64,000 nt of DNA from Candidatus Woesebacteria bacterium RBG_13_46_13 (GCA_001791995.1 MGFR01000001.1:177148-241147), one strand, 5' to 3'. Shown: positions 53,818 through 64,000, counted from the stretch's first letter. A program made the numbers and translations. The notes: a model not told the origin generated them from the letters alone.

Positions 53818-53888
53818 CGGGGAGTAGTTTAACGGTAGAATAGGCGCATGGGGTGCGTCTGGACGGAGTTCAATTCTCCGCTCCCCGA
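53818..53888 (+). tRNA. tRNA-Pro (anticodon GGG)
   Basis: Hand-folded cloverleaf: 7-bp acceptor stem (CGGGGAG/CTCCCCG), D-arm with GG, anticodon stem GGCGC/GCGTC with loop AT-GGG-GT, T-arm CGGAG-TTCAATT-CTCCG; CCA is not encoded. Confidence 0.85.
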
Positions 53889-61760: not shown

Positions 61761-62738
61761 ATGCCGAGAAAAATCGAAATTTCCCACAAAACCATTATTT
61801 TCGCGGTTATGTTTTTGTTGGGTTTGTGGTTTTTCTACTACATTAGGGATTTAATCTTCGAACTTTTCATCGCTCTGGTTATAATGACCATTCTTAACCC
61901 CTTCGTCAGTAAAATCACCAAAATCAAGATTCCCAGAGGGTTTGCTATTTTAATCGTTTATATAGTTGTATTGGGTATTTTCGGTCTGGGAATTGCCGGG
62001 GTAATACCTCCATTGGTCGAGCAGACCACTGGATTTGTAAACAATCTTCCCCATTTTCTTTCCAGGATCGGGGTCAGCCGATTTATGAGTGAGCAGGTTA
62101 CCTCGCAGCTGCTTTCCCAACTGGGGGCCATTCCGGCACAGGCCTTAAAGTTCGGTTATTCGGTTTTTTCCAATGTCCTTTCGGTCTTAACGGTTTTGAT
62201 ATTTGCCTTTTACCTGCTTTTGACACGCGACAAACTGGATACCCAGCTGGCTTTTCTTTTCGGAGAAGACAAAAGGAGAGAAATTGGCAGGATAATCGAC
62301 ATGCTGGAGACCAGGTTGGGAAGCTGGGTGAGGGGGGAGCTGCTCCTAATGCTTTTGGTCGGAACCTTAATTTATATCGGCTTGGCCCTCTTGGGAATTC
62401 CTTTTGCACTGCCCTTGGCCATTATCGCGGGGCTGTTGGAAATAGTACCTATTTTAGGGCCGATTATCGCCGCCGTCCCCTCCGTAATTATCGGATTTAC
62501 CATCTCTCCGGTGATGGGGCTTGCCGCAGCCGCCCTGGCTTTTCTGGTCCAGCAATTTGAAAATTATGTTTTTGTCCCCAAGATTATGGAGAAATCGACG
62601 GGCGTATCTCCCTTAATTACGCTTTTCGCCCTGGCCATAGGCTATAGAATTGCGGGTCCCGCCGGAGCCGTTATCTCCATGCCGGTTGTGTTGGCACTCC
62701 AGGTCGTTTTGCGGGAATACTTCCTCTCCAGGCAGTAG
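61761..62738 (+). CDS. AI-2E family transporter (PerM/UPF0118)
   Basis: Eight-TM protein with a conserved GLLEIVPILGPIIAAVP region. Confidence 0.8.
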   Translation: MPRKIEISHKTIIFAVMFLLGLWFFYYIRDLIFELFIALVIMTILNPFVSKITKIKIPRGFAILIVYIVVLGIFGLGIAGVIPPLVEQTTGFVNNLPHFLSRIGVSRFMSEQVTSQLLSQLGAIPAQALKFGYSVFSNVLSVLTVLIFAFYLLLTRDKLDTQLAFLFGEDKRREIGRIIDMLETRLGSWVRGELLLMLLVGTLIYIGLALLGIPFALPLAIIAGLLEIVPILGPIIAAVPSVIIGFTISPVMGLAAAALAFLVQQFENYVFVPKIMEKSTGVSPLITLFALAIGYRIAGPAGAVISMPVVLALQVVLREYFLSRQ

Positions 62739-62792: not shown

Positions 62793-63081
62793 GACCTCTG
62801 GAGGGTAGTAAGCCAGGTTCTGTTTCAGATGACCATCTGTCTAATGCCCTCAAACTTTGGGTCTCGGGAAAGCATCCTGATAACGACCCGTTCGGAGGTT
62901 GCAGCGGGGAGGATTGCCCCTTTTCACTCGTTCTCGTCTACCTTTAGGGTAGATGAGTCGACATAGTCTCTGTGGCTCTGACTAGCGCTTTCGCGTTCCC
63001 GCTTGCGCGGGACACCCTGCTTTCTGCTGCCTGGACTTTCCTCCCCGATTTTATTCGGGGCGGTCATCCTTCCTCCAGAGT
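62793..63081 (-). ncRNA. rnpB: RNase P RNA (bacterial type A-like, reduced, about 289 nt)
   Basis: The reverse complement contains the P4 strands AGGAAAGUCCAGGC and ACAGAACCUGGCUUAC, a P3 hairpin (GCCCCGAAUAAAAUCGGGG), the P9-like CCCGCGCAAGCGGG hairpin identical to E. coli M1 RNA, and P1 pairing CUCUGGAGG/CCUCCAGAG. Confidence 0.7.
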
Positions 63082-63218: not shown

Positions 63219-63515
63219 ATGACCAGCCTAACGGAGCTTGTCAAGCTTGGCAAGGTGGCCTCGCGGGTCCTGATCGAGACGTTGGAGGCTCTGGCCAACA
63301 ACGGCAAAGATTTGGGGCTTGTCGAAGCCAAGGACGTTGTGGGGCTGCTCGATCGTTCGGAGCCACCCCTCTCGCGAGCTGAACTCGAGAGACTCAAGGG
63401 AGCCAGCCGAAAGGCATCTACCGATCTCGGGACTCAGGGGAAGAGCTGGGCAGAGCAGGATTGGGCGAGAATTGTCAATGCAATCGAAGCCAAACTTGCC
63501 AGGATGCCCAGGTGA
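63219..63515 (+). CDS. Small hypothetical helical protein (98 aa)
   Basis: ATG at 63219 sits behind an AAAGGAGGGGA Shine-Dalgarno and has its own promoter and a downstream hairpin; GC-rich; no known motif. Confidence 0.4.
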   Translation: MTSLTELVKLGKVASRVLIETLEALANNGKDLGLVEAKDVVGLLDRSEPPLSRAELERLKGASRKASTDLGTQGKSWAEQDWARIVNAIEAKLARMPR

Positions 63516-63525
63516 GTACGAAAAG

Positions 63526-63578
63526 AAAGACAGAGCCAGCAATGGTGGCCCCAAAGGCCTTAAATCTGTCTTTTTCTT
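63526..63578 (+). terminator. Long hairpin AAAGACAGA...TCTGTCTTT followed by a T-rich tail (candidate terminator of the small ORF)
   Basis: 9-bp outer stem with an inner GGCC-CCAAA-GGCC stem, then TTCTTTG. Confidence 0.4.
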
Positions 63579-64000
63579 TGGCAAAAATGTTGACAAACAA
63601 AGAACCGGCCTGAATGGGGATTTAGAAAAGCTGTAGTACAGCTACCCCAAACCAGGCCGGCAATGATCCACAGGGTGAACCCCTGAACGGAGTCCACCCC
63701 TTGTGGAGGAGGAGAAGGGTGAAGAAACGCCGTTCGCCCTTCTACTATTCAACTGGGGCGCCATCCCCAGGAATAGCTGGTCGGGTGGAAAACAACACCG
63801 GTTACCCTCCCAACATGAGGGGGGCACGCTAGGAAAGTAGCCAACATTGTCTCCACCCGGTGATGGAATCAAGAAGCCGTGGCGGAAAAGCAAATCTTTC
63901 CGCTTGGCGAATCTTGACCCCCAAACTATCAAGGTACTTTCTCTCCGGACCCCGGGCCCCTAACGGGGAGTTAAGAGCCCGGGGCAGCCGGAGGGAGGCG

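Follow-up and report, generated by a model that had tools for sequence, protein, structure and literature searches.

The window end and the genes around it

The end of the window (the whole 64,000-nt stretch of DNA that was analysed) carries a conserved 98-aa protein gene on the plus strand and, convergent with it, a GC-rich block that very probably forms most of a structured RNA gene on the minus strand (Table 1). The GC content is 0.584 at 63640-64000 against 0.476 across the whole window and, with the window sampled every 50 nt, this is the top 361-nt stretch, the maximum elsewhere being 0.579. The original prediction, which described the block as base-paired and non-coding, named several helices, and all of them were located in the sequence where it had placed them: GCTGTA-G-TACAGC (63631-63643), GAAGGG...CCCTTC, GCGGAAA-N8-TTTCCGC, CTCTCCGG/CCGGAGGGAG and CCCCGGGC/GCCCGGGG, the last of which encloses CCCC-TAAC-GGGG. 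Folding of 63600-64000 gave a minimum free energy (MFE) of -210.5 kcal/mol and a z-score of -10.2 for the minus strand, and -181.1 kcal/mol and -6.3 for the plus strand; none of 100 dinucleotide shuffles folded equally well on either strand.

The minus-strand ORF 63642..63932 (96 aa, TTG start), which had been set aside as junk, is present, yet its frame is not conserved among the homologues described below. In L002 and L005, the two closest diverged homologues (collected loci are given L numbers), indels of 1 nt and 4 nt break it and leave a length not divisible by 3, and its equivalent contains two and five in-frame stops; the block is therefore not coding. The same ORF is broken by indels and stops in L150, and no conserved protein-coding frame was found in the block. 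Its reading as structured non-coding RNA stands.

The 98-aa protein belongs to no Pfam family and Foldseek found nothing in the PDB at E ≤ 0.001; its AlphaFold model, a confident one, is a helical bundle (pLDDT 90.7). A word-based search retrieved only four clusters of the protein, and more diverged copies are present in L146, L149 and L152; in eight loci its gene converges on that of the RNA.

A class A RNase P RNA (rnpB) lies at 62793-63079 on the minus strand (287 nt, 122.8 bits). In the cmscan alignment it lacks a 42-position segment of the model and a GNRA-capped hairpin at about model positions 281-303, which we read as the P13/P14 region and P18. The same reduced RNase P RNA occurs in L005, L148 and L150. 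A tRNA-Pro(GGG) was identified at 53818-53888 on the plus strand by both Rfam and ARAGORN.

Table 1. Coordinates of the features at the window end, counted from the first letter of the window
Feature	Position	Strand	Remarks
98-aa protein gene	63219..63515	+	Conserved; convergent with the RNA; strong Shine-Dalgarno site AAGGAGGGGAGA
Bidirectional terminator hairpin	63520..63582		Between the 98-aa ORF (+) and the RNA (-)
Structured ncRNA gene (predicted)	63594..64000	-	3' ~407 nt of ~442 nt; boundaries from promoter and terminator
U-rich tail UCUUUGUUUG	63594..63603	-	After the terminal hairpin; inferred 3' end
H8, terminal hairpin GCCGGCCUGG...UCAGGCCGGU	63604..63661	-	Terminator-like; includes the GCTGTA-G-TACAGC helix
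H7, hairpin CCACAAGGGGUGGACUCC-GUUCA-GGGGUUCACCCUGUGG	63667..63707	-	Helices 12-13
Pyrimidine linker CUCCUCCUCC	63705..63714	-	Anti-Shine-Dalgarno-like; between H6 and H7
H6, hairpin AGAAGGG...CCCUUCU	63713..63743	-	Conserved ACGGCGUUUCUUC core; the GAAGGG/CCCTTC helix
H5, hairpin GCUAUUCCUGGGG-AUGGCG-CCCCAGUUGAAUAGU	63744..63777	-	Helix 9; 2 compensatory pairs
H4, hairpin of 78 nt	63782..63859	-	~34 pairs, many G-U; helices 6-8; 6 compensatory pairs
H3, hairpin GGGGUCAAGA...UCUUGAUUCC	63865..63921	-	Inner stem GCGGAAAG/CUUUUCCGC; helices 4-5
H2, hairpin CUCCGG-GCCCCGGGCUCUUAAC-UCCCC-GUUAGGGGCCCGGGGU-CCGGAG	63940..63996	-	Helix 3; 100% paired in three sequences
5' pyrimidine tract CCUCCCUCC	63990..63998	-	3' half forms the base of H2

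Promoter and 3' end of the predicted RNA gene

The locus past position 64000 was completed from a near-identical contig of Candidatus Woesebacteria bacterium RBG_19FT_COMBO_47_8 (L001; GCA_001792165.1, MGGA01000044.1), which was reached via the AI-2E permease encoded at window 61761-62738. The window and L001 differ at 14 of 12,240 aligned bases, and position x of the window is position x-51760 of L001. The non-coding gap from the 98-aa gene to dtd, both on the plus strand, is 576 nt; the dtd start was placed 332 nt past the window end.

The whole RNA unit runs from L001 12275 to 11834 on the minus strand (window 64035 to 63594), and a nhmmer profile of the family maps to window 63594-63999 on this strand (E = 7e-146). 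The block had been taken for the 5' part of an RNA with its remainder beyond 64000. Since the end near 63594-63661 is a hairpin followed by UCUUUGUUUG, which is a 3' terminator, the window instead holds the 3' ~90% of the RNA. It does run off the window end, as had been stated, but just ~35 nt of RNA plus the promoter lie outside: the first hairpin (H1), a conserved 5' ACGAG and the promoter are in L001 12241-12308 (window 64001-64068).

The best sigma-70 match of the region is a minus-strand TTGAAA-16-TATAAT (11 of 12 positions; L001 12308-12281), which lies back-to-back with dtd just past the window end. Six of nine RNAs (those of L001, L002, L005, L150, L009 and L010) have this layout, with TTGAAA or TTTACA, a 16-nt spacer and TATAAT or CATAAT, and the other three, which are short forms, have an extended -10 element, TGATACAAT, overlapping the dtd start. 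The TTGACA at 63589, which had been noted as a possible plus-strand promoter element, lacks a usable -10, and it is not conserved either: its equivalent is TTTATC in L002 and is missing from L005.

At the other end, all ten homologues have a terminal hairpin that leads into a U-rich tail. The bidirectional hairpin beyond it is probably a backup terminator for the RNA. In L007, which has a partial copy of the RNA, about 95 nt are inserted between H8 and the hairpin equivalent to 63520..63582; the RNA therefore most likely ends at H8.

The dtd gene has an extended -10 element, TGTTAGAAT, whose last base lies 7 nt before its ATG (L001 12316-12334), and from its sequence appears to be leaderless. 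TATAAT-like boxes lie 7-10 nt upstream of the ATG in several L001 genes. Across the 21 kb of L001, a Shine-Dalgarno-like motif precedes just 4 of 22 genes and is strongest before the 98-aa gene (AAGGAGGGGAGA). Because Shine-Dalgarno-like sites are this few and TATAAT-like boxes are found near start codons, widespread leaderless initiation is suggested in RBG_19FT_COMBO_47_8.

A chain of hairpins

The RNA folds as a chain of eight consecutive hairpins, H1 to H8, and long-range pairing between its 5' and 3' parts is short and weak. A ribozyme or riboswitch seems unlikely, because this is a chain of extended hairpins and not an intricate multi-junction core. RNAalifold on four long forms of the RNA gave a consensus of 141 pairs in 16 helices, with 94.3% of cells paired.

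The helices of the original prediction fall into place along this chain. H2 comprises its nested CCCCGGGC and CTCTCCGG helices and H3 is its GCGGAAA-N8-TTTCCGC helix. The three helices of H8 (14 to 16) are paired in 97.5%, 90% and 91% of cells, and the outer stem of this hairpin, CCGG...CCGG, is found in 10 of 10 homologues. H6 is the sole block tied by nhmmer to the short forms (L149, E = 0.003), and the CUUCUCCUCCUCC tract of the linker that follows it is also found in the short forms, directly 3' of their first hairpin. In the 5' pyrimidine tract, L001, L002 and L005 have exactly the same GCCUCCCUCCGGC as the distant L009. The apical loops of the L001 RNA are CCCUGU, UCCCC, CUUGAUA, AUUUGC, CCCCCCU, AUGGCG, GCGUUU, GUUCA and ACU, of which CCCCCCU, at 63818-63824, belongs to H4.

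Strand and probable selection on structure

Several measures assign the structure to the minus strand. For each of the nine full-length RNAs the sense strand gives the lower MFE; its z-score is the more negative one for eight of them (-5.5 to -12.1), and G-U pairs are more numerous on it in seven of nine, being fewer in L010 only. Two single-nucleotide differences between the window and L001 lie inside the RNA; the one at 63827 converts an A-U pair of H4 to G-U, a change that is neutral only for a minus-strand RNA.

Examination of the helices for covariation in related loci, which had been suggested as a check, showed that 19 of the 141 consensus pairs of the four long forms are changed on both sides. 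The mean in shuffled alignments was 6.8, and none of 500 shuffles reached 19. When the 3' partners were slid by 1-3 columns as a control, two to nine pairs changed on both sides and pairing fell to 40-55%. The three short forms have a common fold of 107 pairs, six of which are compensatory. These compensatory changes support a selected structure, and with four sequences the support is to be read as supportive rather than conclusive. We are highly confident that a minus-strand structured RNA gene is real, its anatomy and conservation having been computed and its transcription predicted.

Gene callers place ORFs over the RNA. ORFs of 105, 62 and 130 aa on the plus strand were called in L146 (2162-2479), L147 (598-915), L152 (1791-1979) and L005 (835-1227), the calls in the short forms being those of 105 or 62 aa. 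They differ between loci, have a junk-like composition and are almost certainly false proteins.

Homologues and distribution

Searches through the 98-aa neighbour and through Dtd found nine further loci with an RNA in the same slot, always on the strand opposite dtd and with its promoter back-to-back with this gene. In nine distinct loci the slot has dtd on one side and the 98-aa gene or rnpB on the other; in L150, rnpB follows the RNA directly with no intervening 98-aa gene. The RNAs comprise long forms (L002, L005 and L150, 414-442 nt), short forms (L146, which is identical to L147, L149 and L152, 340-351 nt) and two divergent forms, of 431 nt in L009 and 502 nt in L010, in addition to the partial copy in L007. 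Pairwise identity among the Dtd proteins of these loci is 66-83%, and Woesebacteria are the closest relatives that carry a name. In many relatives that are just as close the RNA is missing, and a ComM-like gene or another ORF abuts their dtd. Among the 80 loci that a metagenome scan retrieved with Dtd as query, a comparable RNA lay upstream of dtd in L009 and L010 only; in the other close relatives whose contigs extend far enough upstream, dtd directly adjoins a coding gene. Within the 64 kb of the window the element is single copy.

Members of the long group are undoubtedly homologous to one another, as are those of the short group (nhmmer E < 1e-78). Between groups, sequence drift is almost complete. 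Here nhmmer comparison was confined to syntenic RNAs, for which reversed-sequence controls were never better than 0.1, and gave weak matches of long forms to L009 (1.5e-4) and L149 (2e-3), and of L009 to L152, L150 and L001 (4e-4 to 8e-4) and to L010 (5-8e-3). A covariance model of H3-H4 built on long forms (R1) finds the long forms with E-values of 1e-21 to 1e-37. It does not recover the short and distant forms (best L149, E = 0.9), so the subfamilies are not united by this model. Alignments across subfamilies by MAFFT and RNAalifold, of the H6-linker-H7 module and of the terminal hairpin, were too poor to use.

What the groups have in common is position, orientation, promoter type, the terminal CCGG...CCGG hairpin and local motifs. 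One of these motifs, the 5' ACGAG, is common to the groups, and ACGGCGUUUCUUC...CUUCUCCUCCUCC is common to long and short forms. UG-CCCCCCU-CA forms a hairpin apex in L001, L002 and L149, and close variants of it are found in L005 (CCCCCCCU) and L009 (CCCCC). On this basis of synteny, orientation, shared short motifs and weak nhmmer matches, among ten sequences from a handful of lineages, the long, short and divergent forms are treated as one fast-evolving modular family, of which L009 and L010 are presumed members. As judged from these sequences, the family was not catalogued before and is narrowly distributed, all members found to date coming from some Woesebacteria (Microgenomates, CPR), which are groundwater bacteria with tiny genomes. 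A search of the literature on non-coding RNAs of CPR bacteria or Woesebacteria found nothing relevant.

A scan of a genome collection with the pattern ATAAT-N28-48-GCCTCCCTCCGGCY gave 58 matches, all noise: they came from unrelated phyla and represented a Shine-Dalgarno site and start codon read on the opposite strand.

A second structured RNA of about 720 nt is present in L009 (1745-2466, minus strand), directly downstream of the family member. It has its own promoter, TTGACA-17-TATAAT, and a terminator hairpin, CCGGCC...GGCCGGUUC, and its z-score is -7.4. Its fold is multi-branched, unlike the hairpin chain next to dtd; it has no Rfam match and no homologue in the collected loci or the window. 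In several relatives (L009, L017, L018, L020, L151 and L153 were examined) a ComM-like Mg-chelatase gene abuts dtd, whereas in L009 about 1.4 kb with the two RNA genes separates dtd from an ORF of about 510 aa, the putative ComM counterpart. This contrast suggests that the RNA genes are gained or lost as a block at this junction.

Comparison with known RNAs

All 4227 models of Rfam 15 were run on the window, L001, L005, L009, L010, L011, L013 and L017. The only passes at the gathering score were RNase P and tRNA, both away from the RNA element, and in the window these were the class A RNase P RNA and the tRNA-Pro. At E ≤ 10 the end block gave short matches at chance level, the best being psbNH with 19.7 bits, where the gathering score is 45; the completed locus and the homologous loci, searched at permissive E-values, likewise yielded just fragments of this kind. 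The original prediction had recognised no family, and the Rfam result agrees with it; it had also seen no tmRNA, and neither Rfam nor ARAGORN reported one. The ARAGORN searches for tmRNA were negative for the window, L001, L009, L010, L146, L149, L150 and L152, and no tRNA was detected in the end block. The resemblance to a 5S-like loop that the original prediction had mentioned is without support, as neither 5S nor any other rRNA family scored in the block.

6S RNA is a single rod of roughly 180 nt, closed by its 5' and 3' ends and with a large central bubble. The MFE and consensus folds of the present RNAs consist of eight or nine separate hairpins over 340-500 nt, with no such rod, and Rfam returned no 6S match in the window end block, L001 or the homologous loci. 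Neither the block nor L001 matched riboswitch or T-box families in Rfam. A cis-acting leader of dtd is likewise not what was found, the promoter, terminator and fold asymmetry all being on the opposite strand.

Members of the 6C family are short RNAs with two C-loop hairpins, found in high-GC Gram-positives. Like 6C of Actinobacteria (B11 of M. tuberculosis), the Woesebacteria RNA presents a hairpin loop of five or more cytosines. Unlike 6C, it is 340-500 nt long with eight or nine hairpins, usually with one clear C-loop (CCCCCCU) plus linear CCUCC tracts, and it has no 6C match in Rfam. C-rich loops of the 6C sRNA bind multiple mRNA targets independently of an RNA chaperone (PMC6486639).

A second comparison is with RsaE/RoxS. 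The Woesebacteria RNA shares with it C-rich motifs complementary to Shine-Dalgarno sequences and an independent gene with a terminator, but it has no sequence or model match to RsaE/RoxS, is four times larger and occurs in a host with few Shine-Dalgarno sites (4 of 22 genes). RsaE/RoxS of Firmicutes are RNAs of ~100 nt with their own terminator that form defined Rfam families; their conserved UCCC motifs are several, unpaired and C-rich, and are complementary to Shine-Dalgarno sequences.

With OLE, GOLLD, ROOL, HEARO and raiA the RNA has in common that it is unusually long, GC-enriched, structured, intergenic, recognised through comparative analysis and lineage-restricted; it differs from them in being a linear hairpin chain, in having no Rfam match and in its far narrower distribution. 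Its many hairpins, repeated short motif, strong promoter and terminator recall the CsrB/RsmZ sponges, and its multi-site layout suggests titration. However, loops of Csr/Rsm sponges show GGA, whereas this RNA has C-rich loops on the sense strand, with GGA missing from every apical loop of L001; no csrA was seen nearby on the L001 locus.

Two other origins were considered and rejected. For a tandem guide array (CRISPR or TIGR-like), Tandem Repeats Finder, with the minimum score set to 30, reported no repeats in L001 11700-12400. For a phage origin, two degenerate patterns had no matches in IMG/VR. By these membership tests the RNA differs from all known families, which does not demonstrably make it a new kind of system.

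Proposed mode of action and alternatives

Pyrimidine-rich motifs recur along the RNA. There are two to five CCUCC per molecule against at most one GGAGG, and a CU-rich tract (CUCCUCCUCC, GCCUCCCUCC or AACCUCCUUAG) lies directly 3' of a hairpin. A long hairpin of 20-34 pairs displays an apical loop of five to seven cytosines. In silico, the C-rich tracts are unpaired with probabilities of 0.26-0.88, the value for CCCCCCU being ~0.88, and part of the CCUCC tracts are predicted to pair in cis, the 5' tract having a probability of 0.06-0.5 of being unpaired.

Transcription is predicted to start about 6-7 nt past TTGAAA-16-TATAAT and to yield an eight-hairpin RNA of ~442 nt that would stop at H8 and its U tract. 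Exposed CCUCC-type tracts and the loop of five to seven cytosines may then pair in trans with G-rich, Shine-Dalgarno-like sites of mRNAs. Action in trans is proposed because the pyrimidine elements are kept and their GGAGG complements are nearly absent from the same molecule. The targets would be a limited set of mRNAs, with the Shine-Dalgarno-led 98-aa gene as one candidate, and the set could be small because few gene starts on L001 are Shine-Dalgarno-like. Pairing with the ribosome-binding site of the 98-aa gene did not stand out from that with other gene starts: RNAduplex gave -31.7 kcal/mol for this gene start and up to -31.3 kcal/mol for others, which is not better. The size of the RNA (340-500 nt, with ~150 pairs) is far above that typical of a base-pairing sRNA and counts against this mode. 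By analogy with 6C and RsaE/RoxS, base-pairing through the C/U-rich elements is put forward tentatively, as a possibility that falls well short of an even chance. The combined reading, a minus-strand RNA gene of ~442 nt for which base-pairing in trans is predicted, is slightly favoured.

The hairpins and CCUCC tracts might serve another purpose. The RNA could be a large CPR-specific molecule of repeated hairpin plus CCUCC units that imitate helix 45 and the anti-Shine-Dalgarno sequence of the 16S 3' end. It would act either as a decoy for the few Shine-Dalgarno-led mRNAs of a largely leaderless organism or as a protein sponge, titrating 16S 3'-end factors (such as Era, KsgA/RsmA or bS21) instead of pairing with mRNA. 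In every subfamily a CCUCC-type tract lies directly 3' of a hairpin, there are several such sites per molecule, and in L010 the tract AACCUCCUUAG is identical to the canonical 16S 3' tail, ACCUCCUUA; large size and a strong promoter beside rnpB also fit an abundant sponge better than a classical sRNA. However, spacing and sequence around CCUCC are variable, and the locus shows no link to a protein partner. Its 98-aa protein has no RNA-binding fold match, and the gene is missing beside the RNA in L009, L010 and L150. We consider such a decoy unlikely. Rather less probable is a highly diverged housekeeping RNA (6S, tmRNA, SRP or similar) that Rfam models miss in CPR bacteria, even though the promoter is strong and looks constitutive, rnpB adjoins, and CPR RNAs are often atypical, as the neighbouring RNase P RNA without two model segments illustrates. 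Rfam gave no match at E ≤ 0.5 in L005, L009 and L010 and only psbNH at E ≤ 1 in L001 (E 0.15), and ARAGORN saw no tmRNA or tRNA-like domain in seven loci; the chain of eight hairpins is not a 6S rod and lacks both the SRP domain IV motif and tRNA-like ends, and in many close relatives the same slot is empty of RNA.

Evidence on strand and conservation bears on the remaining two explanations. That the block is a plus-strand structured leader (riboswitch, T-box or attenuator) controlling dtd would suit its place directly upstream of this gene and the plus-strand fold, which also beats shuffles (z = -6.3). It is nevertheless highly improbable: the antisense strand folds less stably in all nine homologues, G-U pairs of the minus strand become A-C mismatches on the plus strand, the plus-strand TTGACA is not conserved, and no T-box or riboswitch family matched. 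In addition, a near-consensus minus-strand promoter lies between the block and dtd, a separate extended -10 serves dtd and ends 7 nt short of its ATG, and the dtd genes of most relatives have no such leader. The slightest chance is given to a DNA-level palindrome, a remnant of a mobile element (MITE- or REP-like) or a pseudogene without RNA function. Long near-perfect inverted repeats and variable presence at the ComM-dtd junction among relatives could be explained in this way, but the element is single copy in 64 kb, no flanking repeats were noted and the patterns searched had no match among viral contigs. Moreover, promoter and terminator are conserved, the strands are not equivalent, compensatory changes exceed controls and there is no conserved frame.

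Significance

CPR genomes are tiny and have little spare DNA, yet a strongly promoted structured RNA gene of 340-500 nt is retained in these bacteria, where it is unrecognised by databases and mis-annotated as small proteins by gene callers. A covariance model of the family would clear such false protein calls from CPR genomes. Long structured bacterial RNAs without an assigned function are rare, and several earlier ones led to new biochemistry. If the decoy explanation were true, the RNA would represent RNA-based global control of translation initiation or of 30S maturation in a minimal-genome bacterium. If the pyrimidine elements act on Shine-Dalgarno-like sites or on 16S 3'-end partners, Woesebacteria would gain their first described regulatory RNA, and it would provide a handle on translation control in organisms that seemingly initiate mostly without Shine-Dalgarno sites.
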